Assembly (NCBI GenBank): GCA_964016885.1
Contig: CAXHJY010001633.1
Span: 1 to 64,000, forward strand
Direction of reading: 5' to 3'
Length of the DNA: 64,000 nt
Source of the DNA: Eledone cirrhosa
Taxonomy: Eukaryota
The notes beneath the pieces are model-generated. The model had not been told where the DNA came from. It did not search any database and saw only the letters and a program-made list of their open reading frames with translations. Positions 1 through 26,200 of the stretch are shown in pieces; position 1 is the first letter of the stretch, and the number at the start of each line of letters is the position of its first letter. The translations under genes were made by a program, and so were the position numbers.

Positions 1-3000
1 ATACACTCTATACTAAAACCCTACTATTACGACACTCCTATACTATAACACCTATATACACTCTAATACTATAACCCTATATACACTCTATACTATAACC
101 CTATATACACTCTATACTATAACACCTATATTACACTCTATACTATAACACTTATATACACTCTATACTATAACCCTATATACACTCTAGACTATAACCC
201 TATATACACTCTATACTATAACACCTATATACACTCTATACTATAACCCTAAATCACTCTAACTAAAACCCTATATACACTCATATTACCTATAACACCT
301 ATATACACTCTATACTATAACCCTATATACACTCTATACTATAACCCTATATACACTCTATACTATAACCCCTATATACACTCTATACTATAACCCTATA
401 TACACTCTATACTATAACCCTATATACACTCTATACTATAACCCTATATACAACTAACTATACTATAACCCAATATACACTCTATACTATAACCCTATAT
501 ACACTCTATACTAACCCTATAACACTATACTATAACACCTATACACACTCTATACTATAACACTATATACACTCTATACTATACACTATTTCTTACTATA
601 ACCCTATATACACTCTATACTATAACACCTATATACACTCTATACTATAACCCCTATATACAACTCTATACTATAACACCTATATACACTCTATACTATA
701 ACCCTATTTACACTCTATACTATACCCTATATACACTCTATACTATAACACCTATACACACTCTATACTATAACACCTATAACACTCTATACTATAACAC
801 CTATATACACTCTATACTATAACCCTATATACACTCTACTATAACCCTATACACTCTAACTATAACACCTATATACACCTCTATACTATAACCCTATATA
901 CACTCTATACTATAACCCTATATACACTCTATACTATAACACCTATACACACTCTATACTATAACACCTTATACACTCTATACTATAACACCTATGTATA
1001 CCCTCCTATACTATAACCCTATATACACTCTATACCTATAACACCTATATACACTCTTAATACTATAACCCTATATACACTCTATACTATAACACCCTAT
1101 ATACACTCTATACTATAACCCTATATACACTCTATACTATAACCCTATATACACTCTATACTATAACACCTATACACCACTCTATACTATAACACCTATA
1201 TACATTCTATACTATAACACCTTTATACACTCTATACTATAACCCTATATACACTCTATACTATAACCCTATATACACTCTATAACTATAACACCTTATA
1301 CACACTCTATACTATAACCCTATATACACTCTATACTATAACCCTATATACACTCTATACTATAACCCTATATACACTCTATACTATAACACCTATATAC
1401 ACTCTATACTATAACCCTATATACACTCTATACTATAACCCTATATACACTCTATACTATAACACCTATATACACTCTATACTATAACACCTATATACAA
1501 TCTATACTATACCCTATATACACTATATACTATAACGCTATATACACTCTATACTATAACACCTATATACACTCTATACTATAACACCTATATACACTCT
1601 ATACTATAACCCTATATACACTCTATACTATAACCCAATATACACTCTATACTATAACACCTATATACACTCTATACTATAACACCTATACACTCTATAC
1701 TATAACCCTATATACACTCTATACTATAACCCTATATACACTCTATACTATAACACCTATATACACTCTATACTATAACACCTATATACAATCTATACTA
1801 TAACCCTATATACACTCTATACTATACCCTATATACACTCTATACTATAACATCTATATACACCTCTATAACTAATAACACCTATATACACTCTATACTA
1901 TAACCCTATATACACTCTATACTATAACCCTATATACACTCTATACTATAACACCTATATACACTCTATACTATAACCCTATATACACTCTATATACTAA
2001 AACCCTATATACACTCTTATACTATAACACCTATATACACTCTATACTATAACACCTATATACACTCTTACTATAACCCTATATACACTCTATACTATAA
2101 CCCTATATACACTCTATACTATAACACCTATATACACTCTATACTATAACCCTATATACACTCTATACTATAACCCTATATACACTCTATACTATAACAC
2201 CTATATACACTCTATACTATAACCCTATATACACTCTATACTATAACACCTATATACACTCTATACTATAACACCTATATACACTCTATACTATAACCCT
2301 ATATACACTCTATACTATAACCCTATATACACACTATTACTATAACACCTATACACACTCTATACTATAACACCTATATACACTCTATACTATAACCCTA
2401 TATACACTCTATAACTATAACCCTATATATACTCTATACTATAACACCTATACACACTCTATACTATAACACCTATACACACTCTATACTAATAAACACC
2501 TATATACACTCTATACTATAACCCTATATACACTCTATACTATAACACCTATATACGCTCTATACTATAACCCTATATACACTCTATCCTATAACCCTAT
2601 ATACACCTCTATACTATAACCCTATATACACTCTATACTATAACCCTATATACACTCTATACTATAACACCTATATACACTCTATACTATAACCCTATAT
2701 ACACTCTTTACTATAACCACTATATACACTCTATACTATAACACCTATACACACTCCTATACTATAACACCTATATACACTCTATACTATAACACCTATG
2801 TATACTCTATACTATAACCCTATATACACTCTATACTATAACACCTATATACACTCTATACTATAACCCCTATATACACTCTATACTATACCACCTATAT
2901 ACACTCTATACTATAACCCTATATACACTCTATACTATAACCCTATATACACTCTATACTATAACACCTATACACACTCTATACTATAACACCTATATAC

Positions 3001-6000
3001 ACTCTATACTATAACACCTATATAACACTCTATACTATAACCCTATATACACTCTATACTATACCCTATATACACTCTATACTATAACACCTATATACAC
3101 TCTATACTATAACCCTATATACACTCTATAACTATAACCCTATATACACTCTATACTATAACACCTATACACACTCTATACTATAACACCTATATACACT
3201 CTATACTATAACACCTATGTATACTCTATACTATAACCCTATATACACTCTATACTATAACACCTATATACACTCTATACTATAACCCTATATACACTCT
3301 ATACTATAACACCTATATACACTCTATACTATAACCCTATATACAACTCTATACTATAACCCTATATACACTCTATACTATAACACCTATACACACTCTA
3401 TACTATAACACCTATATACATTCTATACTATAACACCTATATACACTCTATACTATAACCCTATATACACTCTATACTATAACCCTATATACACTCTATA
3501 CTATAACACCTATACACACTCTATACGATAACACCTATATACACTCTATACTATAACCCTATATCCACTCTATACTATAACCCTATATACACTCTATTAT
3601 ATAAAAAATACTATAACACCTATACACACTCTACTATAAACCCTATATACACTCTATACTATAACCCTATATACACTCTATACTATAACACCTATATACA
3701 TCTCTATACTATAACACCTATATACACTCTATACTATAACCCTATATACCCTCTATACTATAACCCTATATACACTCTATACTATAACACCTATATACAC
3801 TCTATACTATAACACCTATATACATCTATACTATAACCCTATATACACTATATACTATAACCCTATATACACTCTATACTATAACACCTATATACACTCT
3901 ATACTATAACACCTATATACACTCTATACTATAACCCTATATACACTCTATACTATAACCCTATATAGACTCTATACTATAACACCTATATACACTCTAT
4001 ACTATAACCCTATATACACTCTATACTATAACCCTATTACACTCTATACTATAACACCTATATACACTCTATACTATAACACTTATATACACTCTAATAC
4101 TATAACCCTATATACACTCTATACTATAACCCTATATACACTCTATACTATAACACCTATATACACTCAATACTATAACACCTATATACACTCTATACTA
4201 TAACACCCTATATACACTCTATACTATAACCCTATATACACTCTATACTATAACCCTATATACACTCTATACTATAACCCTATATACACTCTATACTATA
4301 ACCCTATATACACTCTATACTATAACACCTATATACACTCTAATACTATAACCCTATATACACTCTATACTATAACCCTATATACACTCTATACTATAAC
4401 CCTATATACACTCTATACTATAACCCTATATACACTCTATACTATAACACCTATATACACTCTATACTATAACCCTATATACACTCTATACTATAACCCT
4501 ATATACACTCTATACTATAACACCTATACACACTCTATACTATAACACCTATATACACTCTATACTATAACACCTATGTATACTCTATACTATAACCCTA
4601 TATACACTCTATACTATAACACCTATATACACTCTATACTATAACCCTATATACACTCTATACTATAACACCTATATACACTCTATACCTATAACCCTAT
4701 ATACACTCTATACTATAACCCTATATTACACTCTATACTATAACACCTATACACACTCTATACTATAACACCTATATACACTCTATACTATAACACCTAT
4801 ATACACTCTATACTATAACCCTATATACACTCTATACAATAACACCTATATACACTCTATACTATAACCCTATATACACTCTATACTATAAACCCTATAT
4901 ACACTCTATACTATAACACCTATACACACTCTATACTATAACACCTATATACACTCTATACTATAACACCTATGTATACTCTATACTATAACCCTATATA
5001 CACTCTATACTATAACACCTATATACACTCTATACTATAACCTATATACACTCTATACTATAACACCTATATACACTCTATACTATAACCCTATATACAC
5101 TCTATACTATAACCCCTATATACACTCTATACTAAAACACCTATACACACTCTATACTATAACACCTATATACATTCTATATTATAACACCTATATACAC
5201 TCTATACTATAACCCTATATACACTCTATACTATAACCCTATATACACTCTATACTATAACACCTATACACACTCTATACGATAACACCTATATACACTC
5301 TATACTATAACCCTATATCCACTCTATACTATAACACCTATACACACTCTATACTATAACACCTATATACACTCTATACTATAACACCTATGTATACTCT
5401 ATACTATAACCCTATATACACTCTATACTATAACACCTATATACACTCTATACTATAACCCTATATACACTCTATACTATAACACCTATATACACTCTAT
5501 ACTATAACCCTATATACACTCTTATACTATAACCCTATATACACTCTATACTATAACACCTATACACACTCTATACTATAACACCTATATACATTCTATA
5601 CTATAACACCTATATACACTCTATACTATAACCCTATATACACTCTATACTATAACCCTATATACACTCTATACTATAACACCTATACACACTCTATACG
5701 ATAACACCTATATACACTCTATACTATAACCCTATATCCACTCTATACTATAACCCTATATACACTCTATACTATAACACCTATACACACTCTATACTAT
5801 AACCCTATATACACTCTATACTATAACCCTATATACACTCTATACTATAACACCTATATACACTCTATACTAATAACACCTATATAACAACTCTATACTA
5901 TAACCCTATATACACTCTATACTATAACCCTATATACACTCTATACTATAACACCTATATACACTCTATACTATAACACCTATATACAATCTATACTATA

Positions 6001-9000
6001 ACCCTATATACACTATATACTATAACCCTATATACACTCTATACTATAACACCTATATACACACTCTATACTATAACACCTATATACACTCTATACTATA
6101 ACCCTATATACACTCTATACTATAACCCTATATACACTCTATACTATAACACCTATATACACTCTATACTATAACACCTATATACACTCTATACTATAAC
6201 CCTATATACACTCTATACTATAACCCTATATACACTCTATACTATAACACCTATATACACTCTATACTATAACACCTATATACAATTTATACTATACCCT
6301 ATATACACTACTATACTATAACCCTATATACACTCTATACTATAACATCTATATACACTCTATACTATAACACCTATATACACTCTATATACTATAACCC
6401 TATATACACTCTATACTATAACCCTATATACACTCTATACTATAACACCTATATACACTCTATACTATAACCCTATATACACTCTATACTATAACCCTAT
6501 ATAACACTCTATACTATAACACCTATATACACTCTATACTATAACACCTATATACACTCTATACTATAACCCATATACACTCTATACTATAACCCTATAT
6601 ACACTCTATACTATAACACCTATATACACTCTATACTATAACCCTATATACACTCTATACTATAACCCTATATACACTCTATACTATAACACCTATATAC
6701 ACTCTATACTATAACCCTATATACACTCTATACTATAACACCTATATACACTCTATACTATAACACCTATATACACTCTATACTATAACCCTATATACAC
6801 TCTATACTATAACCCTATATACACACTATACTATAACACCTATACACACTCTATACTATAACACCTATATACACTCTATACTATAACCCTATATACACTC
6901 TATACTATAACCCTATATATACTCTATACTATAACACCTATACACACTCTATACTATAACACCTATACACACTCTATACTATAACACCTATATACACTCT
7001 ATACTATAACCCTATATACACTCTATACTATAACACCTATAATACACTCTATACTATAACCCTATATACACTCTATACTATAACCCTATATACACTCTAT
7101 ACTATAACCCTATATACACTCTATACTATAACCCTATATACACTCTATACTATAACACCTATATACACTCTATACTATAACCCTATATACACTCTATACT
7201 ATAACCCTATATACACTCTATACTATAACACCTATACACACTCTATACTATAACACCTATATACACTCTATACTATAACACCTATGTATACTCTATACTA
7301 TAACCCTATATACACTCTATACTATAACACCTAATACACTCTATACTATAACCCTATATACACTCTATACTATAACACCTATATACACTCTATACTATAA
7401 ACCCTATATACACTCTATACTATAACCCTATATACACTCTATACTATAACACCTATACACACTCTATACTATAACACCTATATACACTCTATACTATAAC
7501 ACCTACTACTACACTCTATACTATAACCCTATATACACTCTATACTATAACCCTATATACACTCTATACTATAACACCTATATACACTCTATACTATAAC
7601 CCTATATACACTCTATACTATAACCCTATATACACTCTATACTATAACACCTATACACACTCTATACTATAACACCTATATACACTCTATACTATAACCC
7701 CTATGATACTACTCTATACTATAACCCTATATACACTCTATACTATAACACCTATATACACTCTATACTATAACCCTATATACACTCTATACTATAACAC
7801 CTATATACACTCTATACTATAACCCTATATACACTCTATACTATAACCCTATATACACTCTATACTATAACACCTATACACACTCTATACTATAACACCT
7901 ATATACACTTCTATACTATAACACCTATATACACTCTATACTATAACCCTATATACACTCTATACTATAACCCTATATACACTCTATACTATAACACCTA
8001 TACACACTCTATACGATAACACCTATATACACTCTATACTATAACCCTATAATCCACTCTATACTATAACCCTATATACACTCTATACTATAACACCTAT
8101 ACACACTCTATACTATAACCCTATATACACTCTATACTATAACCCTATATACACTCTATACTATAACACCTATATACACTCTATACTATAACACCTATAT
8201 ACACTCTATACTATAACCCTATATACACTCTATACTATAACCCTATATACACTCTAATACTATAACACCTATATACACTCTATACTATAACACCTATATA
8301 CAATCTATACTATAACCCTATATACACTATATACTATAACCCTATATACACTCTATACTATAACACCTATATACACTCTATACTATAAACACCTATATAC
8401 ACTCTATACTATAACCCTATATACACTCTATACTATAACCCTATATAGACTCTATACTATAACACCTATATACACTCTATACTATAACCCTATATACACT
8501 CTATACTATAACCCCTTATATACACTCTATACTATAACACCTATATACACTCTATACTATAACACTTATATACCACTCTATACTATAACCCTATATACAC
8601 TCTATACTATAACCCTATATACACTCTATACTATAACACCTATATACACTCTATACTATAACACCTATATACACTCTATACTATAAACCCTATAAACACT
8701 CTATACTATAACCCTATATACACTCTTACTATAACCCTATATACACTCTATACTATAACCCTATATACACTCTATACTATAACCCTATATACACTCTATA
8801 CTATAACACCTATATACACTCTATACTATAACCCTATATACACTCTATACTATAACCCTATATACACTCTATACTATAACCCTATATACACTCTATACTA
8901 TAACCCTATATACACTCTATACTATAACACCTATATACACTCTATACTATAACCCTATATACACTCTATACTATAACCCTATATACACTCTATACTATAA

Positions 9001-12000
9001 CACCTATACACACTCTATACTATAACACCTTATATACACTCTATACTATAACACCTATGTATTACTCTATACTATAACCCTATATACACTCTATACTATA
9101 ACACCTATATACACTCTATACTATAACCCTATATACACTCTATACTATAACACCTATATACACTCTATACTATAACCCTATATACACTCTATACTATAAC
9201 CCTATATACACTCTATGACTATAACCCTATACACACTCTATACTATAACACCTATATACACTCTATACTATAACACCTATATACACTCTATACTATAACA
9301 CCTATATACACTCTATACTATAACCCTATATACACTCTATACTATACACCTATATACACTCTATACTATAACCCTATATACACTCTATACTATAACCCAT
9401 ATATACACTCTATACTATAACACCTATACACACTCTATTACTATAACACCTATATACACTCTATACTATAACACCTATGTATACTCTATACTATAACCCT
9501 ATATACCACTCTATACTATAACACCTATATACACTCTATACTATAACCCTATATACACTCTATACTATAACACCTATATACACTCTATACTATAACCCTA
9601 TATACACTCTATACTATACCCCTATATACACTCTATACTATAACACCTATACACACTCTATACTATAACACCTATATACATTCTATACTATAACACCTAT
9701 ATACACTCTATACTATAACCCTATATACACTCTATACTATAACCCCTATATACACTCTATACTATAACACCTATACACACTCTATACGATAACACCTATA
9801 TACACTCTATACTATAACCCTATATCCACTCTATACTATAACCCTATATACACTCTATACTATAACACCTATACACACTCTATACTATAACCCTATATAC
9901 ACTCTATACTATAACCCTATATACACTCTATACTATAACACCTATATACACTCTATACTATAACACCTATATACACTCTATACTATAACCCTATATACAC
10001 TCTATACTATAACCCTATATACACTCTATACTATAACACCTATATACACTCTATACTATAACACCTATATACAATCTATACTATAACCCTATATACACTA
10101 TATACTATAACCCTATATACACTCTATACTATAACACCTATATACACTCTATACTATAACACCTATATACACTCTATACTATAACCCTATATACACTCTA
10201 TACTATAACCCTATATAGACTCTATACCTATAACACCTATATACACTCTATACTATAACCCTATATACACTCTATACTATAACCCTATATACACTCTATA
10301 CTATAACACCTATATACACTCTATACTATAACACCTATATACACTCTATACTATAACCCTATATACACTCTATACTATAACCCTATATACACTCTATACT
10401 ATAACACCTATATACACTCTATACTATAACACCTATATACACTCTATACTATAACCCTATACACTCTATACTATAACCCTATATACACTCTATACTATAC
10501 ACCTATACACACTCTATACTATAACACCTATATACACTCTATACTATTACCCTATATACACTCTATACTATAACCCTATATACACTCTATACTATAACAC
10601 CTATACACACTCTATACTATAACCCTATTACACTCTATACTATAACCTTATATACACTCTATACTATAACACCCATATACACTCTATACTATAACACCTA
10701 TATACACTCTATACTATAACCCTATATACACTCTATACTATAACCCTATATACACTCTATACTATAACACCTATATACACTCTATACTATAACACCTATA
10801 TACACTCTATACTATAACACCTATATACACTCTATACTATAACACCTATATACACTCTATACTATAACCCTATATACACTCTATACTATAACCCTATATA
10901 CACTCTATACTATAACACCTATATACACTCTATACTATAACACCTATATACACTCTATACTATAACCCTATATACACTCTATACTATAACCCTATATACA
11001 CTCGATACTATAACACCTATATACACTCTATACTATAACACCTATATACACTCTATACTATAACCCTATATTACACTCTATACTATAACCCTATATACAC
11101 TCTATACTATAACACCTATATACACTCTATACTATAACCCTATATACACTCTATACTATAACCCTATATACACTCTATACTATAACACCTATATACACTC
11201 TATACTATAACCCTATATACACTCTATACTATAACACCTATATACACTCTATACTATAACACCTATATACACTCTATACTATAACCCTATATACACTCTA
11301 TACTATAACCCTATATACACTCTATACTATAACACCTATATACACTCTATACTATAACACCTATATGCACTCTATACTATAACCCTATATACACTCTATA
11401 CTATAACCCTATATATACTCTATACTATAACACCTATACACAATCTATACTATAACCCTATATACACTCTATACTATAACCCTATATACACTCTATACTA
11501 TAACACCTATATACACTCTATACTATAACACCTATATACACTCTATACTATAACCCTATATACACTCTATACTATAACCCTATATACACTCTATACTATA
11601 ACACCTATATACACTCTATACTATAACCCTATATACACTCTATACTATAACCCTATATACACTCTATACTATAACACCTATATACACTCTATACTATAAC
11701 CCTATATACACTCTATACTATAACACCTATATACACTCTATACTATAACACCTATATACACTCTATACTATAACCCTATATACACTCTATACTATAACCC
11801 TATATACACACTATACTATAACACCTATACACACTCTATACTATAACACCTATATACACTCTATACTATAACCCTATATACACTCTATACTATAACCCTA
11901 TATATACTCTATACTATAACACCTATACACACTCTATACTATAACACCTATACACACTCTATACTATAACACCTATATACACTCTATACTATAACCCTAT

Positions 12001-14940
12001 ATACACTCTATACTATAACACCTATATACACTCTATACTATAACCCTATATACACTCTATACTATAACCCTATATACACTCTATACTATAACCCTATATA
12101 CACTCTATACTATAACCTATATACACTCTATACTATAACACCTATATACACTCTATACTATAACCCTATATACACTCTATACTATAACCCTATATACACT
12201 CTATACTATAACACCTATATACACTCTATACTATAACACCTATATACAACTCTATACTATAATCCTATATACACTCTATACTATAACCCTATATACACTC
12301 TATACTATAACACCTATATACACTCTTTACTATAACACCTATATACACTCTAATACTATAACCCTATATACACTCTATACTATAACCCTATATACACTCT
12401 ATACTATAACACCTATATACACTCTATACTATAACCCTATATACACTCTATACTATAACCCTATATACACTCTATACTATAACACCTATATACACTCTAT
12501 ACTATAACCCTATATACACTCTATACTATAACACCTATATACACTCTATACTATAACACCTATATACACTCTATACTATAACCCTATATACACTCTATAC
12601 TATAACCCTATATACACTCTATACTATAACACCTATATACACTCTATACTATAACACCTATATACACTCTATACTATAACCCTATATATACTCTGTACTA
12701 TAACACCTATACACACTCTATACTATAACCCTATATACACCCTATACTATAACCCTATATACACTCTATACTATAACACCTATATACACTCTATACTATA
12801 ACACCTATATACACTCTATACTATAACCCTATATACACTCTATACTATAACCCTATATACACTCTATACTATAACACCTATATACACTCTATACTATAAC
12901 ACCTATATACACTCTATACTATAACCCTATATACACTCTATACTATAACCCTATATACACTCTATACTATAACACCTATATACACTCTATACTATAACCC
13001 TATATACACTCTATACTATAACCCTATATACACTCTATACTATAACACCTATATACACTCTATACTATAACACCTATATACACTCTATACTATAACCCTA
13101 TATACACTCTATACTATAACCCTATATACACTCTATACTATAACACCTATATACACTCTATACTATAACACCTATATACACTCTATACTATAACCCTATA
13201 TACACTCTATACTATAACCCTATATACACTCTATACTATAACACTTATACACACTCTATACTATAACACCTATATACACTCTATACTATAACCCTATATA
13301 CACTCTATACTATAACCCTATATACACTCTATACTATAACACCTATACACACTCTATACTATAACCCTATATACACTCTATACTATAACCCTATATACAC
13401 TCTATACTATTACACCTATATACACTCTATACTATAACACCTATATACACTCTATACTATAACCCTATATACACTCTATACTATAACCCTATATACACTC
13501 TATACTATAACACCTATATACACTCTATACTATAACACCTATATACACTCTATACTATAACCATATATACACTCTATACTATAACCTTATATACACTCTA
13601 TACTATAACACCTATATACACTCTATACTATAACACCTATATACACTCTATACTATAACCCTATATACACTCTATACTATAACCCTATATACACTCTATA
13701 CTATAACACCTATATACACTCTATACTATAACACCTATATACACTCTATACTATAACCCTATATACACTCTATACTATAACCCTATATACACTCTATACT
13801 ATAACACCTATATACACTCTATACTATAACACCTATATACACTCTATACTATAACCCTATATACACTCTATACTATAACCCTATATACACTCTATACTAT
13901 AACACCTATATACACTCTATACTATAACCCTATATACACTCTATACTATAACCCTATATACACTCTATACTATAACACCTATATACACTCTATACTATAA
14001 CCCTATATAAACTCTATACTATAACACCTATATACACTCTATACTATAACACCTATATACACTCTATACTATAACCCTATATACACTCTATACTATAACC
14101 CTATATACACTCTATACTATAACACCTATATACACTCTATACTATAACACCTATATACACTCTATACTATAACCCTATATACACTCTATACTATAACCCT
14201 ATATATACTCTATACTATAACACCTATACACACTCTATACTATAACCCTATATACACTCTATACTATAACCCTATATACACTCTATACTATAACACCTAT
14301 ATACACTCTATACTATAACACCTATATACACTCTATACTATAACCCTATATACACTCTATACTATAACCCTATATACACTCTATACTATAACACCTATAT
14401 ACACTCTATACTATAACACCTATATACACTCTATACTATAACCCTATATACACTCTATACTATAACCCTATATACACTCTATACTATAACACCTATATAC
14501 ACTCTATACTATAACACCTATATACACTCTATACTATAACCCTATATACACTCTATACTATAACCCCATATACACTCTATACTATAACCCTATATACACT
14601 CTATACTATAACCCTATATATACTCTATACTATAACCCTATATACACTCTATACTATAACCCTATATACACTCTATACTATAACCCTATATACACTCTAT
14701 ACTATAACACCTATATACACTCTATACTATAACCCTATATACACTCTATACTATAACCCTATATACACTCTATACTATAACACCTATATACACTCTATAC
14801 TATAACCCTATATACACTCTATACTATAACCCTATATACACTCTATACTATAACCCTATATACACTCTATACTATAACCCTATATACACTCTATACTATA
14901 ACCCTATATACACTCTATACTATAACCCTATATACACTCC
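1..14940. repeat. Tandem array of interspersed 24-bp and 25-bp units (about 600 copies); candidate telomeric or terminal repeat
   Basis: Units TAACCCTATATACACTCTATACTA (24) and TAACACCTATATACACTCTATACTA (25) are read directly. The + strand is almost G-free. The - strand reads TATAGGGTTATAGTATAGAGTGTA toward base 1. The array runs off the window start and ends abruptly at about 14940. Confidence 0.97.
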
Positions 14941-15172
14941 GTACCTCTTCTATTCTCCTCTTCTTTGCCCACTACTTCCTGAGAGTGTTGCGGTGGCAGA
15001 GTCCTGAAACACTTCTTCCAGCTGGTCCTGTCAGAAGCAACCATCTCCAACTGATCTGGCTGGATTCCCAAGCGTGACCAGCTCATGTTATCTAACGTTC
15101 TTTCTCTTCTTCTACCCCTGGCTCTCCTACCAGTTGATTTAGCCCGTAAAATCTGTTCAGCGATTCTTTCCT
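14941..15172 (-). mobile_element. 3'-terminal fragment of an RTE-clade (Rex3/Expander-like) LINE ORF
   Basis: Manual minus-strand translation: ERIAEQILRAKSTGRRARGRRRERTLDNMSWSRLGIQPDQLEMVASDRTSWKKCFRTLPPQHSQE. This fits the RTE C-terminal signature GxRxRGRPxxRW...WxRLGI...VAxDRxxW...LPP. It has no start codon, so it is absent from the ORF track. Confidence 0.8.
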
Positions 15173-16252
15173 AAGACTTTCTAACCCCACGTGATTACAC
15201 CTTATACTTTAACCCCTAATACACTATACACTTTTTACTTCTTAAATGGTATTATGTGTATTGAAGGTGATTTCTGATATGCAACCCCCCAAAAAATTAT
15301 GAGATGACTAAACTGTGAAGTGAACGCACGTCTCTGATATGATATCCCCTCCCCAAAACATATAATTATCTATTCTTCTATTGATTTGAGATTGACTTTC
15401 ATAACGTTCCTGTATAGTTATCTGAACCTGATCATTTCCCTTAGTTATGTCTTACAGCGTTGTCTCCCTTACCATCCGATTATTTCACTGCAGAGTTATT
15501 TCCCATTTGTACATCATTTGTATTTGTTATATATTTAACAAGTGCCGATTTCTTGTAGTCTTTTTATTGCCTCATGTGGGATGTTAAATGCTGCGATACC
15601 GCCAGCGACAATCTGGTGCGTTCGACTCCCAGCCCAGGCTTCGCTTCTAGTCAGGCTGAAGAGGACAAACTGTCAAAGTATCTGCCGCTCTCCCATAAGC
15701 TTGTGGCAGTGGAGTCTTCTGACGTTCTTTGCCAACACCTTTCGACCACATCCTTACTCACTTCTATCAGGGCAGAGTTGGCTACCCGTGGTGGAATAGC
15801 TGTTTCAGCGTGTCTTCCTCGCCATACTCAGAAGTAATGTCTTCTCCATCCTGTCTGCCGAGACGAAGAGGTGCAATGGATATCTAGCGCGACAGGTGCT
15901 GTGAAACTGGGTAGACCAGCAGTACCGTTGGTAGGGGTCGAAACTGCCAAAGTCAACCTCAACGACCGATGAACCTGGAGTTCTGTGTCCCCTGGCTGCA
16001 TGTTTATTTATTTTAAAATAGTCTTTTAAGGTTACACAACAGTTAGTTCACCATAGCGAGAATAATTGTTTCACCTTAGCGGATCCTCAGCTCGTAATGG
16101 ACCTGGTTATAGGAACAGGAAGGATATACTCCACCTGGATCCTCACATTTAACTTGGGATGTTTCATGTTGTTGAGTGCTTACCTCAGGGTACTTCAAGA
16201 TCTACCAATTGGGGTATATAATGCCCTAACAGCATATAATGTAATATAACAT

Positions 16253-16254
<2 letters not shown>

Positions 16255-16333
<79 letters not shown>
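16255..16333. repeat. (TA)n microsatellite
   Basis: Direct read. Further (TA)n tracts lie near 18905-18950, 20195-20250, 20545-20570, 20868-20935, 21410-21513, 22021-22080, 22312-22336 and 22673-22712. Confidence 0.97.
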
Positions 16334-16334
<1 letters not shown>

Positions 16335-16739
16335 TGGTAAACGGAAAAGAAAATGCTGACAAATTGTTCACAGTGAAAAATAGTTTAATTAGGAATAAGT
16401 GAGAATTAGTAATAGTATTGTTTAGTATTCAGTTTTGGTGATAAGTTTTACCGGTTGCGCATTTCTAATGCTTTTCAAAAATAATTTTGAGATAGAGCGT
16501 CCGTGAAGTTTGCTCTGATCTGGTTAGTTTTGGAAATTCTACCTGTTTTATGTGAAAAAAGTGGCTCCAGATGTATTAAAATAAGTTTTGCGCCAATTCG
16601 TGTTGCAAAAATTCTTGTGGTCAAAACAATTTTGATTGGTCGGTAGAGGTCATGTGAATGTTAAAAATTGATTTTGCGCCAAATGTAGGTTTGTGTCGGC
16701 TGATTGAGAAGTCACTGAAAAATAAGTCTTTCAAAACAA

Positions 16740-16741
<2 letters not shown>

Positions 16742-16777
<36 letters not shown>

Positions 16778-16990
16778 TAGTAGTAGTAAAGAGGTTCGTT
16801 GTTGTGATAATGGTCAGCAGGGATGTGTGTGCGAACCGCAGCCTGTTGACAGTTCAAATGCCTATTAAGACAAGTGTGTGTAGCAGAGTAATTCGTGGTA
16901 GAGGGATGGTCAGTAGGAATGTGTCTGTAAGTGTGTGGGGGATATTTTAACATGTTAAAAGATATTTTTCAGCTCTTGTCTTATACGGAG

Positions 16991-17028
<38 letters not shown>

Positions 17029-17092
17029 CTCTTTGTATGTTAATGTACGCGTGTGTATGTGTGTGTGTATATATGTGTGTGTGTGTGTATAT

Positions 17093-17129
<37 letters not shown>

Positions 17130-17130
17130 G
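16742..17130. repeat. (TG)n and mixed (TG/TA)n microsatellites downstream of the Penelope ORF
   Basis: (TG)n runs at about 16744-16775 and 16993-17130. Confidence 0.9.
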
Positions 17131-17571
17131 GTGGACCAGTATTTTTGTGATACTGGTAAAATGGTGTACATTATTCGATATTTTCAGTAAAAACGATTCT
17201 CTCAATAGAACATCAAAAACCTTAGTAATAAAAGGTGTGAAATGATATATAGTATTGACAATACCAAGGTGTGTGTGAGTGTCCAGATTGTACGTACTAC
17301 AAGGGGAATCCATTAGGCCTTGCCGTATTGGAATACTTGTATACAAATATGTATGCGCCCATCAGTGTGCAATGCATGTGTGCGTTTATGTATGTGTGTG
17401 TGTCGGCACGTTTATATCTATAGACATCAAAAGGTATGCAAATTTGTGTATATTTGTGTTGCACCATAGAACATGTGTGTTTACGTATGTCATTGTGTTT
17501 ATATGTGAATAGAAATGTATGCTGATGTAGGTATGTATGTTGACGTGTGTATGTTGTCTGACGGGTTCGTC

Positions 17572-18546
17572 TTAGGGAGAAGTGTTTAGACGAGGTCCGT
17601 ATTTGTTAATAAAGTGAGATTCCTTGCTGATGCGCTGGGTGTGGGTGGCATTATCTTTAAATTTGTAGAGGGGAAAGATTCTGAAGTTGGGATGATTTTG
17701 GGCGGCACAGGTATCAATGTGTTCACTCAGTGGTATTTTCTTGTATTTCCGTATTTTAATTTGGGATCTATGGACAGTCATGCGTTGGCGGAGGCTGTTT
17801 TGGGTCTGGCCTATGTATTGTTCTCGACAACCTGAGCAAGTTAATACATATATTAGATTTTCTGATGCGCATGTGAAATTGTGTTTTACTATAAAACGTT
17901 GTCCTTCTTTGAAATAGAATTCAGAACCCTCTATTAGGTTGATGCATATGCCACAGTTGGGTCTATCGCATTTTTTTACTCTGGGTTTCGTTGTTGTGGT
18001 TGGCAATACTTTGGCATGTGTTAGGATGTTTTTCATTGACTTGGATTGTCTTTTGCTCTTTATGATATCGTGTGTTCGTAGGATTTGGTTCATTCTATGG
18101 TCCTTTTTCAACACAAGGATGTTCTGGAGGATGGTGTCAAAGGCCTCATTGTTGAGGGGGTTGTGTGTGGAGATGTATGGAAGAGCTTTTAGTTTCGGTT
18201 GATTTACTTTAGGGTGTCTAAGGTCCTGTGTACTGAGTTTTAGGGCACGTTGGATTCCATTGTCAATTAGTGATGCAGAGTAGTCCCTGCCTATGAGTGT
18301 GTCCTTTAGTTCTTGTAGCCGTAAGTAACAGGTGTTTTTATTGGAGACTATAGTACAGATTCTCTTGGCTAAGTTGTAGGGAATATTAATTTTAACGTGT
18401 CTAGGGTGGCAAGATTTGAAAGGAAGATATTGCTTGGAGTCTGTGGGCTTGTAGTATATGTCTGTTTCTATTTTTTTGTTATGGATCTTAATGAGGATGT
18501 CGAGGAAGGGGAGTTGTTGATGGCTGTATTCCATCGTGAAGTTAAT
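17572..18546 (-). mobile_element. 5'-truncated Penelope-like retroelement (probably Neptune-type): RT C-terminal/thumb region plus GIY-YIG endonuclease
   Basis: ORF 17572..18654 contains INFTME..LPFLDILI..TDIYYKPTD..YLPFKSCHP (PLE RT C-terminus), a linker Cys motif CDRPNCGIC..C, and NLIYVLTCSGCREQYIGQT..LRQRMTVH..EH..KE..FI (GIY-YIG with CCHH). Homology stops at a short (TA)n near 18546. The RT catalytic DD motif is missing, and the first ~36 aa come from adjacent DNA. Confidence 0.93.
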
Positions 18547-18794
18547 ATATATATATATAATGTCCTTACCAGCTACGTACGCTACGTATGTTATCTTGAG
18601 GATCAACTTGTTCAACATCAGCCGATGAAAATGAACCGGAAAATGTTTACTCAAAGGGGCGAAAATAAAGATAAGTATGTTGCCTTACCTTGGATTTTTT
18701 ACCTACCTATTACTAGTATTTATATATTGTTGTTGTTATCTACCATGACTGAATCTTAACTATCTACTATGTCAGGGTATGTCATGCATCATCT

Positions 18795-18861
18795 TATTTT
18801 ATCTGATGAGGACGTACTGTTGAAGTTAGCTCAGTACCTCTGAAATATGTATAATAAAATA
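18795..18861 (+). ncRNA. Type I hammerhead ribozyme with minimal stem III (PLE pLTR type)
   Basis: Stem I TATTTTAT/ATAAAATA; core CTGATGA (18803-18809); stem II GGACGTACTG/CAGTACCTCT with one mismatch; GAAA (18842-18845); near-palindromic ATATGTAT stem III; cleavage triplet AUA. Confidence 0.8.
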
Positions 18862-18902
18862 TACTTGATCAAACGAATGTCTATTTTTGTTAATATTTTG
18901 AA

Positions 18903-18949
<47 letters not shown>

Positions 18950-18951
<2 letters not shown>

Positions 18952-19088
18952 CGAAGGAAATGTGGTACGGAACTAGATGGACCATAACGCACCAAAGTAC
19001 TCAATACTTAGGGCAGTAGAGTGGGTAATAGGAACGAGTAGGACCCCGACGGCTGAGCTCAAGCCGTTTCGACGGCTAATTCTGGACA
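18950..19088 (-). mobile_element. PLE pLTR 3' fragment carrying the 3' half of a hammerhead; homologous to 21890-22021
   Basis: The minus strand reads GTC-GAAA-CGGCT-TGAGCTC-AGCCG-TC-GGGG...CCTATTACCCACTCTACTGCCC...CCACATTTCCTTCGT-(TA)n. A diverged copy is on + at 21890-22021. Confidence 0.65.
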
Positions 19089-19097
19089 TATATATAT

Positions 19098-19135
19098 AGA
19101 GAGAGAGAGGGGGGAGAGAGAGAGAGAGAGAGAGA

Positions 19136-19187
<52 letters not shown>
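19098..19187. repeat. (GA)n microsatellite
   Basis: Direct read. Confidence 0.95.
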
Positions 19188-19189
<2 letters not shown>

Positions 19190-19729
19190 TGGCTTCTACA
19201 GGATTAGAACTGTTTCATTAGAAGCCATCTCTATGTCAAACTTGATATTTACACTCTACTAATGTGTATTGAGTACCTTACTTACTATGGTTACCCCCGA
19301 TTGAACCCGGGACTCACACCACACACACGTACGCACACACAGAGTGGACTCAGGCTATTTTTATCCAGAATAATCTCTATTGTCCCGCTTTCATCAGTCT
19401 AACTTGAGTTGTCCCCCTTGTCGACCACCTTGCGTATCACCGGCCAACCTCATATAGTCTTCCGTTTCGGCTGAGCCATTACTCGAGTTCAAAATCCCCA
19501 AGGTGAAACATGAGTCCCCAAAAATGGTTTTCTAACTGTTGTGGAACTAACTTTATACCGAACTCGTCCCATGGACTGAGTGCTCTATTTACTAAGGATA
19601 TAACCTCCAGGGTTCTACCACACATTATATATATGATACCATTTTATTATACAGTGATGTGAGATTGCTTTTTCTAATAACCAATTTTTCACAATCTTAT
19701 TAATTTGTATTTGAGACACGTTGGCTGAG

Positions 19730-20189
19730 AGCTTATGACGGGAGCGGAACTATTTGATTTCTAATCTCCTGCCACCACGTAAACTTATAAATCGGTGGCC
19801 GGTCGGGGATACCATTGTATCAGATCCCAGTCGCTAATCACTTTACTGTGTTGGCCATCACAAGCAGTCATAGCAGGCACGAACTGGAGTCGAATTCTGT
19901 TGATCGATTGGTTATTGATTAGGCGAAACCCGCTGATGAAGCCACATGCGCCGATTATTCATTATTGCATAATATATGCGGACAGAGGGTGCAGTGCACC
20001 CACCCTACTGCTGCATTAAGTGTGGCAGAAACTCGAGTTCGGGAACTACTATAGGCACCCGTTTACGTGTGTTGTATTGAAGCGAATAACTATGTGAATA
20101 CTCTGGGAGTGTATCCTACATTACCTATTGAGTACGCTGAGATGCAACCGGTCCTGGCATTGATACCTATGCTGGGCCCGTCAACTTCT

Positions 20190-20192
<3 letters not shown>
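19730..20192 (+). mobile_element. About 460-bp hammerhead-containing dispersed repeat, copy 1 (pLTR or retrozyme-like)
   Basis: Aligns by eye to 20943-21410, sharing AGCTTATG..GGAGCGGAA, the identical block GAATTCTGTTGATCGATTGGTTATTGATTAGGCGAAACCCGCTGATGAAGCCACATGC, and TTACCTATTGAGTA.GCTGAGAT. It ends in (TA)n. Confidence 0.8.
19929..20043 (+). ncRNA. Type I hammerhead ribozyme with extended stem II
   Basis: Stem I CCCG/CGGG; CTGATGA (19933-19939); GCCACA/TGTGGC closing a ~75-nt insert; GAAA (20028-20031); perfect palindrome ACTCGAGT as stem III; triplet GUU. Confidence 0.7.
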
Positions 20193-20250
<58 letters not shown>

Positions 20251-20254
<4 letters not shown>

Positions 20255-20362
20255 GGAGGGAAGAAAAAAATGGCTTCACTTGTGCTTTCAACAAATTTAT
20301 TTTCTTCACAAAATCCAAAAAGAATTTTTTTCCCGGATTAGAAAAAATTTTTCTTAAAAAAA

Positions 20363-20395
<33 letters not shown>

Positions 20396-20502
20396 TTAAT
20401 AAAAATATTTGCTAATCCGGGAAAAAAATTCTTTTTGGATTTTGTGAAGAAAATAAATTTGTTGAAAGCACAAGTGAAGCCATTTTTTTCTTTCCTCCTG
20501 TC
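20251..20502. repeat. Fold-back inverted repeat, arms of about 90 bp
   Basis: GACAGGAGG...TTCCCGGATTA (20251-20340) is the reverse complement of TAATCCGGGAA...CCTCCTGTC (20413-20502). The spacer is A/TA/T-rich. Confidence 0.93.
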
Positions 20503-20539
20503 TTAATATACCTAACTGTACCAAGGATTACACACATTT

Positions 20540-20566
<27 letters not shown>

Positions 20567-20572
<6 letters not shown>

Positions 20573-20723
20573 GAATTAAAAAGAACAGAAAGATGCAGTA
20601 AAAGAGATTGATTTGGTTCTTACGTACGTTTCAATAGACATCAAATTGATGTCTATTGAAACGTACGTAAGAACCAAATAAATCTCTTTTACTGCATCTT
20701 TCTGTTCTTTTTAATTCTTTATA
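20567..20723. repeat. Near-perfect palindrome (arms of about 78 bp) containing a hammerhead 3' half
   Basis: Centre near 20644 (GACATCAA-A-TTGATGTC). The right arm contains GAAA-CGTACG-TA, i.e. a palindromic stem III plus a GUA site. Confidence 0.92.
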
Positions 20724-20863
20724 CACGCCCCGGAAGATAGCTAAACTGGAGTATACACCTTTTTTCTGCATTTCGTTGAGCACCACTCTGTTGTAAGCTG
20801 ACATTCCCCTACACGGTACATAACACTGTGTCCTGGAAAACATTAATGCACTTGTGCATAACC

Positions 20864-21514
<651 letters not shown>

Positions 21515-21703
21515 CTACAGCAGGTACAGTGAATTTTTGTAAATTTATTTTAAAACTTTTTCTTATTTGCTAAACCTTGATTATATATATATATATATAT
21601 ATATAATTTTTTCCTTCCCCTTAAATCTCCGCCCCCCCCCCTTTAATGTCTTTCCACCACTCCCCCTCACACACTCGGAACTCTTCTCCTTCCCACTTTT
21701 CTC

Positions 21704-21734
21704 CCGATGAAGGGCTTATGCCCGAAACGGCATC
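21704..21734 (+). ncRNA. Degenerate hammerhead-like motif
   Basis: CCGATGA-A-GGGC-TTAT-GCCC-GAAA-C. The core has U4>C and stems I and III do not pair, so it is probably inactive. Confidence 0.4.
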
Positions 21735-21825
21735 CCCCACATCCCACTCTCAAGCGTGAACCTAATACTAACACTGTTTGTACTGCATCTTCGTTTTTGT
21801 TTTCTGTTTTAACTTTATATATATA

Positions 21826-21942
21826 TAGGAAAAGAGTCAGAACCCCGACGGCAGAGCTCAAGCCGTTTCGACAGCTATTTCTGAACTGAAATAGGTGTCG
21901 AAACGGCTGAGCTCTGCCGTCGGGGTTCTGACTATTTTCCTA
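21826..21942. repeat. Fold-back inverted repeat (arms of about 55 bp) containing a hammerhead 3' half
   Basis: TAGGAAAAGAGTCAGAACCCCGACGGC...CTATTTC pairs with GAAATAG...GTCGAAACGGC...GCCGTCGGGGTTCTGACTATTTTCCTA. The right arm continues to (TA)n at 22021. Confidence 0.9.
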
Positions 21943-22019
21943 TTACCCACTCTACTACCCAAAGTATCAAGTAATCTGGTGCGTTATGGTCCACCTGGTT
22001 CCTTACCACACTTCCTTCG

Positions 22020-22077
<58 letters not shown>

Positions 22078-22085
<8 letters not shown>

Positions 22086-22257
22086 ATACTTGGGGAGGGT
22101 CATATTTGCGTAATATTGCCAGAATTAATAACAGAACACACTCACTGTATGGTTGGTTAAGACAGCGAGAAGCGAAAACCAACCAAACAGTGAGTGTGTT
22201 CTGTTATTAATTCTGGCAATATTACGCAAATATGACCCTCCCCAAGTATAACAATAT
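22078..22257. repeat. Fold-back inverted repeat, arms of about 80 bp
   Basis: ATATTGTTATACTTGGGGAGGG...TGGTTGGTT pairs with AACCAACCA...CCCTCCCCAAGTATAACAATAT around a ~19-nt loop. Confidence 0.93.
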
Positions 22258-22519
22258 CTGTTTCGACACACGATTTCATATAAAAACCTCGCAAAACTAA
22301 CTCATCGCCGCTATATATATATATATATATATATATGGTCGTTTTAACTGCTGCTATTTCTAGTGGCAGTATATTGACCTTTCCGCCCCTGCCTTCTATC
22401 TTTACACACGGCACTAGACAAAATTGTTTCTTCATCATACACTCTCATCCTGGAACAGTTCTGTATGGCACCAGTTCGTGATTTGAACTCAGGAATTTTA
22501 TATTCTCCGAGTGAGAAGA

Positions 22520-22603
22520 ACCCTCTGACGAAAGTCTTCATCTCAATGGATTTCCGCATGGATTATCCATTTATTTTGAGACTTGAAACTGCGCGGTAGG
22601 GGT
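22520..22603 (+). ncRNA. Type I hammerhead ribozyme, the best-formed copy in the window
   Basis: Stem I ACCCT/GGGGT; CTGACGA (22525-22531); stem II AAGTCT/AGACTT extended by AATGGA/TCCATT; GAAA (22585-22588); near-palindromic ACTGCGCGGT stem III; triplet GUA. Its 3' tail (22611-22672) recurs at 21520-21582. Confidence 0.85.
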
Positions 22604-22670
22604 AATTATAGCAGGTATAGTGAACTTTTTAAAATTTATTTTAAAACTTTTTCTTATTTGCTAAACCTTG

Positions 22671-22717
<47 letters not shown>

Positions 22718-22884
22718 ATAAGCTGCGACTATACATATAGTTTTGCCTTTTAAGTAAGTACCTATAAGCTATCAGTCATTTCAAAGTCACAATCTCGATG
22801 TTTTTTCTAATTCGAAGATTATAATTTCAAGATTCTATGTACAGCTACATTGATCATCTCAGATAATTCCCTTCATCATAATTT

Positions 22885-23090
22885 CTAATTTAGGTATATA
22901 GTCAATAATTTGATGGAGAGGAGATATCGATTAGATCGAACCCAAGATTTGGGTGCTGCTCTATCGAACCCGGAAAATTGAAAACCATCGTTGGCCTCGG
23001 CTGGATTTGGAATCGGAACGTAATTGGTTCTAACTATAAGCCACAATGCATTTTGTCAGACGCTCTACCGATTCTGCCAATCTACCACTC
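22885..23090 (-). mobile_element. Degenerate tRNA-derived SINE (Octopus-type)
   Basis: The minus strand reads TGGCAGAATCGGTAGAGCG (A box) ... TTACGTTCCGATTCCAAATCCAGCCGAGG (decayed B box) ... GGGTTCGATCTAATCGA..TCCCATCAAATT. It resembles the abundant Octopus SINE consensus as I recall it; not checked by search. Confidence 0.7.
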
Positions 23091-23276
23091 TCGATAATTG
23101 AGATAATAACCACAATGTTGTACAGAGTTGAATTGGAAAGTTAAAGGACACCAATTTAACTATTAAACTAAACACAAACCCGTTAAAGAATGTATTGTTG
23201 GTAAACTACTACAAATGTACTGATACTTAATCATTACTGTAAAAAAACATTTATAGAGATTTTATGTAAAGGTGGC

Positions 23277-26200
23277 TGGAGGTGCGGTAAGGGTGTTGGA
23301 CTGACCATCAGGATGTTGTAGGTTCAATTGCTAGACTGGGTTGTGTTCTGTGGAGGTGTGTGGCCTAGTGGTAAGGGTGTTGGACTGACCATCAGGATGT
23401 TGTAGGTTCAATTGCTGGACTGGGTTGTGTGTTGTGTTCTGTGGAAGAGTGTGGTCTAGTGGTAAGGGTGTTGGACTGACCATCATAATGTTGTAGGTTC
23501 AATTGCTGGACTGGGTTGTGTGTTGTGTTCTGTGGAGGTGTGTGGTCTAGTGGTAAGGGTGTTGGACTGACCATCAGAATGTTGTAGGTTCAATTGCTGG
23601 ACTGGGTTGTGTGTTGTGTTCTGTGGAAGAGTGTGGTCTAGTGGTAAGGGTGTTGGACTGACCATCAGGATGTTGTAGGTTCAATTGCTAGACTGGGTTG
23701 TGTGTTGTGTTCTGTGGAGGTGTGTGGCCTAGTGGTAAGGGTGTGGGACTGACCATCAGGATGTTGTAGGTTCAATTGCTGGACTGGGTTGTGTGTTGTG
23801 TTCTGTGGAGGTGTGTGGCCTAGTGGTAAGGGTGTTGGACTGACCATCAGAATGTTCTAGGTTCAATTGCTGGACTGGGTTGTGTGTTGTGTTCTGTGGA
23901 AGAGTGTGGTCTAGTGGTAAGGGTGTTGGACTGACCATCAGAATGTTGTAGGTTCAATTGCTGGACTGGGTTGTGTGTTGTGTTCTGTGGAAGAGTGTGG
24001 TCTAGTGGTAAGGGTGTTGGACTGACCATCAGAATGTTGTATGTTCTATTGCTAGACTGGGTTGTGTGTTGTGTTCTGTGGAGGTGTGTGGCCTAGTGGT
24101 AAGGGTGTTGGACTGAAAACAGGATGTTGTAGGTTCAATTGCTGGACTGGGTTGTGTGTTGTGTTCTGTGGAAGTGTGTGGCCTAGTGGTAAGGGTGTTG
24201 GACTGACCATCAGGATGTTGTAGGTTCAATTGCTAGACTGGGTTGTGTGTTGTGTTCTGTGGAGGTGTGTGGCCTAGTGGTAAGGGTGTTGGACTGACCA
24301 TCAGAATGTTGTAGGTTCAATTGCTGGACTGGGTTGTGTGTTGCGTTCTGTGGAAGAGTGTGGTCTAGTGGTAAGGGTGTTGGACTGACCATCAGAATGT
24401 TGTAGGTTCAATTGCTGGACTGGGTTGTGTGTTGCGTTCTGTGGAAGAGTGTGGTCTAGTGGTAAGGGTGTTGGACTGACCATCAGAATGTTGTAGGTTC
24501 AATTGCTGGACTGGGTTGTGTGTTGTGTTCTGTGGAGGTGTGTGGCCTAGTGGTAAGGGTGTTGGACTGACCATCAGAATGTTGTAGGTTCAATTGCTGG
24601 ACTGGGTTGTGTGTTGTGTTCTGTGGAGGTGTGTGGCCTAGTGGTAAGGGTGTTGGACTGACCATCAGAATGTTGTAGGTTCGATTGCTGGACTGGGTTG
24701 TGTGTTGTGTTCTGTGGAGGTGTGTGGCCTAGTGGTAAGGGTGTTGGACTGACCATCAGGATGTTGTAGGTTCAATTGCTAGACTGGGTTGTGTGTTGTG
24801 TTCTGTGGAGGTGTGTGGCCTAGTGGTAAGGGTGTGGGACTGACCATCAGGATGTTGTAGGTTCAATTGCTGGACTGGGTTGTGTGTTGTGTTCTGTGGA
24901 GGTGTGTGGCCTAGTGGTAAGGGTGTTGGACTGACCATCAGAATGTTGTAGGTTCAATTGCTGGACTGGGTTGTGTGTTGTGTTCTGTGGAGGTGTGTGG
25001 CCTAGTGGTAAGGGTGTTGGACTGACCATCAGGATGTTGTAGGTTCAATTGCTGGACTGGGTTGTGTGTTGTGTTCTGTGGAGGTGTGTGGCCTAGTGGT
25101 AAGGGTGTTGGACTGACCATCAGAATGTTGTAGGTTCAATTGCTAGACTGGGTTCTGTGTTGTGTTCTGTGGAAGTGTGTGGCCTAGTGGTAAGGGTGTT
25201 GGACTGACCATCAGGATGTTGTAGGTTCAATTGCTAGACTGGGTTGTGTGTTGTGTTCTGTAGAGGTGTGTGGCCTAGTGGTAAGGGTGTTGGACTGACC
25301 ATCAGGATGTTGTAAGTTCAATTGCTAGACTGGGTTGTGTGTTGTGTTCTGTGGAAGTGTGTGGCCTAGTGGTAAGGGTGTTGGACTGACCATCAGGATG
25401 TTGTAGGTTCAATTGCTAGACTGGGTTGTGTGTTGTGTTCTGTGGAGGTGTGTGGCCTAGTGGTAAGGGTGTTGGACTGACCATCAGGATGTTGTAGGTT
25501 CAATTGCTAGACTGGGTTGTGTGTTGTGTTCTGTGGAAGTGTGTGGCCTAGTGGTAAGGGTGTTGGACTGACCATCAGGATGTTGTAGGTTCAATTGCTA
25601 GACTGGGTTGTGTGTTGTGTTCTGTGGAGGTGTGTGGCCTAGTGGTAAGGTTGTTGGACTGACCATCAGGATGTTGTAGGTTCAATTGCTAGACTGGGTT
25701 GTGTGTTGTGTTCTGTGGAGGTGTGTGGCCTAGTGGTAAGGGTGTTGGACTGACCATCAGGATGTTGTAGGTTCAATTGCTAGACTGGGTTGTGTGTTGT
25801 GTTCTGTGGAGGTGTGTGGTCTAGTGGTAAGGGTGTTGGACTGACCATCAGGATGTTGTAGGTTCAATTGCTAGACTGGGTTGTGTGTTGTGTTCTGTGG
25901 AGGTGTGTGGTCTAGTGGTAAGGGTGTTGGACTGACCATCAGGATGTTGTAGGTTCAATTGCTAGACTGGGTTGTGTGTTGTGTTCTGTGGAGGTGTGTG
26001 GCTTAGTGGTAAGGGTGTGGGACTGACCATCAGGATGTTGTAGGTTCAATTGCTGGACTGGGTTGTGTGTTGTGTTCTGTGGAGGTGTGTGGCCTAGTGG
26101 TAAGGGTGTTGGACTGACCATCAGAATGTTGTAGGTTCAATTGCTGGAATGGGTTGTGTGTTGTGTTCTGTGGAGGTGTGTGGCCTAGTGGTAAGGGTGT

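Follow-up and report, generated by a model that had tools for sequence, protein, structure and literature searches.

The contig CAXHJY010001633.1 of Eledone cirrhosa (assembly GCA_964016885.1) begins with a tandem array of 24- and 25-bp units, analysed here in a window that comprises the whole stretch of 64,000 nucleotides from position 1 of the forward strand. The array is probably a nested, telomere-oriented, satellite-like structure at or near an octopod chromosome end, grown outward by homology-driven self-copying. The nested duplication is real and the order of the units is non-random. About 14.4 kb of the array was not written by de novo telomerase but was built by recombinational copying of blocks; because that stretch was copied in blocks, telomerase working one unit at a time is excluded for it. 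The initial annotation of the sequence had argued that copies of point variants in kilobase blocks lie beyond new synthesis by telomerase and that the array as assembled grew by recombination, and both the blocks and their nesting bear this out.

Form A, of 24 bp, accounts for 297 of the 609 units and reads CCCTATATACACTCTATACTATAA on the plus strand. Form B (25 bp, 213 units) is form A with one inserted base, variant C makes up a further 42 units, and the point variants D to N are scarcer. The plus strand is C-rich, with a GC skew of about -0.98 over 1-14,000; the G-rich strand is the minus strand, running 5' to 3' toward position 1, which is the polarity of a left telomere if position 1 is the outer side. 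Measured against the unit library, edits amount to 0.2% in the innermost kb and climb to 4.8% in the outermost; they are rich in insertions (62, with 28 deletions and 33 substitutions), and such a gradient would be expected from long-read coverage thinning toward a contig end. Runs of 24-bp forms are exactly two units long in 118 of 164 cases, where 41 would be expected at random, and in 30 of 38 cases within the unduplicated inner 143 units (p = 5e-14); because these forms come so often in exact pairs, the local order of A and B units appears to have been copied as well. Form A alone carries the core TAGGGTTA, and A-type units are nearly always paired; speculatively, each pair might be bound by a TRF-like protein acting as a dimer. 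The 24/25-bp telomere-like repeat is apparently undescribed so far: neither the motif nor any account of octopus telomeres or telomerase was found in the literature searched, including the accessible text of PMC8166319, the motif leading in that literature to papers on Staphylococcus RnpA inhibitors only, and motif scans gave no match in metagenome contigs, none in viral contigs and a single bacterial match that was taken as chance.

Rare 21-mers, with the monomer left out, recur at offsets that peak at 4480, 4080, 420, 2180, 4500, 2320, 1780 and 6260 bp. When the monomers are encoded as variant letters and the array is compared with itself, as the initial annotation had proposed, the unit-space autocorrelation peaks at a lag of 182 units, with 0.567 against a mean of 0.365 in shuffled arrays and a maximum over lags of 0.455 in 200 shuffles, and blocks stand far above those of shuffled arrays. 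The longest block pairs 141 units at 1267-4743 with 5754-9224 at a score of 125, against null maxima of 19 in 50 shuffles, 26, 26 and 40 in Markov models of order 2, 3 and 4 (50 runs each) and 26 in 200 module shuffles, so the recurrence of rare variants at fixed offsets claimed earlier is amply upheld. Seventeen of the 18 motif positions quoted for it are exact, the motif lying 3-4 bp upstream of the coordinate, and at about 7705 the variant is present in damaged form. The block-copy structure spans from about 370-540 to about 14,400; periodicity is indeed present over the range 900-10300 first assigned to it, but its extent is greater. Over about 540-14,400 the uniform or randomly ordered units expected of a telomerase-made tract are not seen. 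What is found is recombinational copying of variant-marked blocks, a mark of telomerase-negative satellite telomeres and of alternative lengthening of telomeres (ALT), and nested multi-monomer blocks with private mutations, a mark of satellites with higher-order repeats.

Gapped alignment in unit space resolves the hierarchy and reduces all of the periods to nested duplications, which in nesting order are of 98 bp, 2.8 kb, 419 bp, 1.77 kb and then 4.09 kb (Table 1). The three periods proposed earlier were 419 bp, 1.77 kb and 4.49 kb. The first two hold, with copy numbers of 2.12 and 1.97, while the third is not a period of its own but the 4.09-kb block (166 units, about 2.3 copies) plus 17 units and minus 1; the duplication of about 114 units (2.8 kb) and the 98-bp AABB repeat are additional. 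The outer 2.8-kb copy, P2, was later enlarged by duplications of 17 and 72 units (203 = 114 + 17 + 72), and its alignment with the inner copy P1 has 109 matches, 3 mismatches and 94 gap columns, the last largely due to those later duplications; 9 substitutions separate the two copies over 1,227 bp of the low-noise zone (0.73%). Within P2, 64 of 72 units match between U and U' at lag 72, and this pair carries variants D, F, G, H, I, J and M, none of which occurs inward of position 10,250 in counts by zone. The likeliest reading is that they arose by mutation in the outer P copy and were multiplied by later duplications. The 4.09-kb copies Q2 and Q1 align with 156 matches, 10 mismatches and 16 gap columns, and the 17- and 72-unit duplications are found in both. 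Between 1 and 1634, 56 of 67 units match block U, and Q3 follows the unmodified block rather than the modified start of Q2. A variant-rich island at about 9.3-10.1 kb needs no import from another chromosome end once P1 and P2 are aligned, although such an import is still conceivable. Unit 2, considered as a noisy M variant that would take the third copy to position 1, was rejected as such, being at equal edit distance from six classes. The 14 units at 6,126-6,470 (copy at 1,634-1,976), beyond the outer end of P2, carry variant G but lack I and M, which usually adjoin it, reflecting either an earlier short non-adjacent copy or recurrent mutation.

Table 1. Features of the array and its inner edge
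Feature	Position	Strand	Basis or remark
Tandem array, 609 units	1..14939	-	Dynamic-programming parse into 24-bp and 25-bp forms plus point variants
Outermost ~22 units	1..538	.	Noisy; no inner source block assignable
Q3, start of third 4.09-kb copy	369..1633	.	4-unit deletion; 38-unit run at lag 90
Q2, outer copy of 4.09-kb unit	1634..6125	.	182 units = 166 + 17 - 1
17-unit (419-bp) tandem duplication private to Q2, recent	4917..5753	.	1 substitution in 346 bp compared
Q1, inner copy of 166-unit (4.09-kb) block	6126..10208	.	Unit alignment
P2, outer copy of ~114-unit (2.8-kb) duplication, the oldest large one	6471..11455	.	Alignment with P1
U'/U, 72-unit (1.77-kb) tandem duplication	7010..10499	.	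70-unit run, 3 mismatches; older 17-unit duplication in each
P1, inner copy of 2.8-kb duplication	11456..14270	.	Contains 98-bp AABB repeat run at 12,729-13,927
Innermost 18 units	14515..14939	.	15 of 18 are 24-bp forms; abrupt start, no degenerate gradient
3' end of high-copy retroelement-like repeat, joined directly to array	14940..15200	-	Open reading frame 14928-15170
Possible degenerate remnant, ~2 units of 24-mer repeat (weak)	15181..15232	-	Post hoc p 0.007-0.017, test interval 15,151-15,300

In the order that the nesting implies, the array would have been seeded by an A-rich stretch of 24-bp units keeping the telomere core TAGGGTTA, followed by the AABB 98-bp repeat and then by the 2.8-kb duplication. 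Point mutations would next have arisen in the outer 2.8-kb copy, and the internal duplications of 419 bp and 1.77 kb would have turned them into the "recurring variants"; the 4.09-kb block would then have been copied about 2.3 times, with small gains and losses afterwards. The enzymology may have been unequal sister exchange or strand-invasion/break-induced copying. Private substitutions number 16 in 4,667 bp in the inner zone and 4 in 4,505 bp in the next zone out (p = 0.012), and the inner zone is also denser than both outer zones together (14 in 8,992 bp; p = 0.034); because of this the array appears to be older inside, and growth would presumably have been outward. The 419-bp and 1.77-kb events are uninformative about a chromosome end since both lie inside older blocks. 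The 4.09-kb unit stops 14 units past the outer end of P2; this single post hoc case hints at end-anchored copying from the terminus of that time.

A chromosome end is suggested because the polarity, the noise gradient, the abrupt junction and the core all fit it, and we somewhat favour a terminal position for the array. The eight bases of the core in form A are identical to a stretch of TTAGGG repeats (p = 0.012, post hoc) and are lost in form B; there are 292 copies in the array and none elsewhere in the window. Descent of the unit as a whole from (TTAGGG)4 was considered and found no support.

Several observations weigh against an end-located array grown outward, or against parts of that reading. 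The whole unit matches (TTAGGG)4 at 12 of 24 positions (p = 0.30), and the G-quadruplex scores of the two forms are low (0.54 and 0.36, versus 1.5). Positions 1-538 match none of the predicted continuations (ranks 132-441 of 559). The block signal of the proximal part is weak by itself (p = 0.033), the divergences of U/U' (0.09%) and Q1/Q2 (0.23%) lie within the noise and do not confirm the order of events, and the old-interior gradient would equally fit a satellite cut by a contig break. Forms A and B both occur at high depth in short-read contigs of two data sets (X1 and X2), which speaks for the array, but these come from one sample, possibly the source sample; the comparison covered 60 bp of the array. 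Summed contig depth at 14,902 is 37,311 and 17,364 in X1 and X2, about a quarter of it with the B insertion, and depth in the unique flank is 4.8 and 7.06. The rough ratio corresponds to 4-26 array-equivalents, not to be taken as a copy number, and leans against 15 kb of array at every end; an octopod with a diploid number of 60 has about 120 ends (accessible text of PMC5646656), more than this estimate. No contig piece across the array junction was found among the 16 of 18,608 pieces listed, and two restriction-site-associated DNA runs (X3 and X4) gave no reads over the array bins and have no bearing on it. TTAGGG is, in the accessible text of PMC13218726, the only experimentally determined cephalopod motif, found in Amphioctopus areolatus. 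Finally, a 91-bp satellite 8 kb further inward has block copies of its own, in runs of 24, 22 and 21 units (lags underestimated, as fused units were skipped), with a top autocorrelation of 0.188 against a shuffle maximum of 0.136.

Alternatively, the array may be a subtelomeric or interstitial satellite at which the assembly stopped, with a telomerase-made TTAGGG tip beyond it and with blocks that reflect ordinary satellite turnover. We regard this as a serious possibility, though short of probable. It draws on the Amphioctopus motif, the block copies in the 91-bp satellite, the low abundance estimate, the cuttlefish telomerase reverse transcriptase (TERT) described below and the higher-order repeats found inside Arabidopsis telomeres (PMC11406999, accessible text). 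It has to contend with telomere polarity, a retained core and an abrupt junction; with the absence of a TTAGGG tract anywhere in the 64-kb window, which holds 4 + 3 isolated hexamers only; and with the lack of an octopod TERT among the representatives examined.

That last result, together with copying that extends to some 0.4-0.5 kb from position 1, would suit a true telomere kept by recombination alone, in an ALT-like manner, with telomerase lost or unused in the octopod lineage. We hold this to be rather unlikely. In a similarly tentative form, TTAGGG could have been replaced by the 24/25-bp end repeat, lengthened by recombination, in which case telomerase would have been lost, or have fallen out of use, once octopods and cuttlefish had separated. 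A mollusc-weighted profile, with baits from metagenome loci, was run over 1.84 billion representative proteins. The best 150 of 4,637 matches include 26 mollusc-like representatives, of which 20 were checked for their source; 15 of these had usable names, one being the cuttlefish TERT and none an octopod TERT. Among 134 TERT-like proteins compared (131 from that list and 3 from a word search), the cuttlefish TERT was first or second best match of one alone, itself, and octopod proteomes are in the collection. Word searches gave no cephalopod TERT among 22 matches, nor among the best 120 of 676 listed, and the ESM Atlas offered phylum-level clusters only. Searched for cephalopods, the TERT survey PMC5405514 gave none in its main text or in 11 of its 18 supplement files, and none turned up in the main text and supplement of the TeloBase paper PMC10767889 or of PMC8480181, a survey of telomerase RNAs whose supplement lists those of animals. 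Rfam gave 25 matches over 14,000-25,000, all below the gathering score, and no telomerase RNA. The end of the 4.09-kb unit near the outer end of P2, as if copied from the then-terminus, would also suit an ALT-like end, but the 419-bp and 1.77-kb events are internal and not end-anchored. The profile list moreover comprised 150 of 4,637 matches, with relatives above 50% identity sitting behind one representative, so that an octopod TERT may lie in the cuttlefish cluster or rank lower, and its loss does not follow from this search. The cuttlefish TERT (CAE1228149.1) keeps motifs T, A, B' and C and looks intact, which speaks against telomerase-free ends, as does the occurrence of proximal higher-order repeats in telomerase-positive Arabidopsis (PMC11406999, accessible text). 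Growth by recombination rather than telomerase, as the initial annotation put it, thus stands in its first half, but the further step to telomerase-free end maintenance does not follow, because the outer 538 bp cannot be assigned, the 91-bp satellite has blocks too, Arabidopsis provides a precedent, and both TTAGGG and a cuttlefish TERT are on record. One TERT-like protein, P0318, was set aside: a tree groups it with the cuttlefish protein (support 0.83), but identity is 32% and bivalves match better. The metagenome contigs with TERT fragments (L001-L012) are of host or eukaryote origin, one of them (L004) matching stony-coral TERT at 68-77%.

Rolling-circle growth had been proposed alongside recombination. 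It is possible for the 4.09-kb block but not for the 419-bp and 1.77-kb periods, which have about two copies each inside older blocks. A 4.09-kb circle or a resolved t-loop could have made Q1-Q2-Q3, and t-loop self-priming with a rolling-circle variant has been described (PMC6702307, accessible text); the 2.3 or so copies are head to tail, and Q3 tracks the unmodified block and not the modified start of Q2. At least three head-to-tail copies of a long unit would be the expected sign, however, the third copy is untraceable over the last 538 bp, the other large periods all have about two copies, and two rounds of unequal exchange yield the same outcome. We therefore consider a rolling circle improbable.

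More doubtful still is a yeast-like telomerase with a 24-nt template, perhaps in two alleles giving A and B, that would start the end and replenish it, the inner array being rebuilt by recombination. To our knowledge such a template would far exceed the repeat lengths of animals. The A-rich seed at the abrupt junction does resemble a healed end, and the outer 538 bp, being unassignable, would leave room for fresh addition; yeast repeats can exceed 20 nt, and in Candida tropicalis two types come from two RNA alleles (PMC7857110, accessible text). The fixed AA doublets of the inner 143 units are nevertheless unlike stochastic template use, the outer part is too noisy to count as new synthesis, and no template turned up in the sequence at hand.

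It is equally doubtful that the blocks are an assembly artefact, in which reads of different ends or haplotypes were joined through generic A/B similarity. The insertion-rich noise and low coverage, and a Q1/Q2 junction that is sharp and without a shared marker, would suit such joining. Among 407 aligned unit pairs, though, the 10 with noise in both copies (12.8 would be expected under independence) never have an error in common, so that errors are independent between copies and a single pasted consensus is excluded; a mis-join of reads from two similar ends would not be caught in this way. Noise is unchanged across the Q1/Q2 junction (p = 0.4 and 1.0), both Q copies hold the 17- and 72-unit duplications, and the nesting is coherent, with private gains and losses. 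Recombinational copying at or near a chromosome end remains the reading that we prefer.

Inward of the array, the retroelement-like repeat to which it is joined reaches a summed contig depth of 10^4-10^5. It may be an RTE-LINE, although Pfam gave no match. If the degenerate remnant beyond it is real, the retroelement would have inserted into an older edge of the array. At 15,587 X1 and X2 differ in base, in single contigs, which may reflect heterozygosity of the unique flank or a second, similar locus. A Penelope-like remnant lies at 17,572-18,684 on the minus strand, with a 370-codon open frame and a GIY-YIG endonuclease domain; being endonuclease-bearing, it is not of the telomere-restricted type. 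Octopods provide five of the seven named matches among the best 120 of 162, including the best named ones, Argonauta (55% over 99%) and Octopus vulgaris (63% over 50%), as would be expected of an octopod host. Several near-perfect palindromes next to (AT)n tracts, at 20,259-20,494, 20,585-20,705, 21,824-21,941 and 22,126-22,210, give sub-threshold miRNA-like matches and are either foldback elements or assembly chimeras. The 91-bp satellite occupies 23,340-64,000 in 449 copies nearly free of indel noise; its G-rich strand is the plus strand, opposite to that of the end array, and its unit presumably resembles the tRNA-derived head of a SINE.

The array provides a candidate 24-mer probe and a readable record of its own growth. 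Cephalopod chromosome ends are almost unstudied, with one motif based on fluorescence in situ hybridization (FISH) citable in a 2026 genome paper (PMC13218726, accessible text). If the array is terminal, octopods would join the short list of animals with non-canonical ends, a motif for use in assembly work would become known, and telomerase loss would be directly testable. Were a recombination-kept cap to prove true, a short-lived, semelparous, large-brained animal would represent a new natural ALT lineage, with an array that records each extension event; if the array lies elsewhere than at the tip, it is an ordinary satellite, though a well-resolved one.

Among known systems, the satellite telomeres of Chironomus and Anopheles, maintained by recombination, share with this array the long tandem arrangement, non-canonical units and block evolution by recombination (PMC9498494 and PMC13234504, here and below in their accessible text). 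The likeness to Chironomus drawn in the initial annotation holds in this respect but not in unit length, which is about 350 bp there and 24/25 bp here; the dipterans also lack telomerase and have a proven terminal position, both of which are conjectural for the present array. Naturally telomerase-negative lineages such as Pleurodeles waltl (10.1101/2022.03.25.485759), Meloidogyne (PMC10844300) and Microstromatales yeasts (PMC13234504) likewise carry non-canonical or variant repeats at the ends of contigs, oriented and with a G skew, as far as the accessible text of these reports goes. In them TERT absence and terminal location have been shown (the latter by FISH, and by BAL31 in the newt), whereas here both would be predictions, and a decapod cephalopod, the cuttlefish, keeps TERT. 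The Meloidogyne repeats occur at one end per chromosome only, which would fit the low copy estimate for this array. The variant zone of Arabidopsis telomeres resembles it in having repeated blocks of variant units, some of which carry mutations of their own, and slippage and unequal crossing over are the explanation given for them; those blocks are short, of a few 7-bp units, and lie within a tip that is uniform and made by telomerase, whereas here they run to 166-182 units and no uniform tip is assembled (PMC11406999, accessible text). The yeasts Candida albicans, Kluyveromyces lactis and Candida tropicalis have units of more than 20 nt with a TTAGGG-like core, and the two-type repeats of C. 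tropicalis recall the two forms of this array, one base apart; the yeast repeats, however, are templated singly, while those of Eledone stand in fixed AA doublets that have been copied in kilobase blocks (PMC7857110, accessible text).

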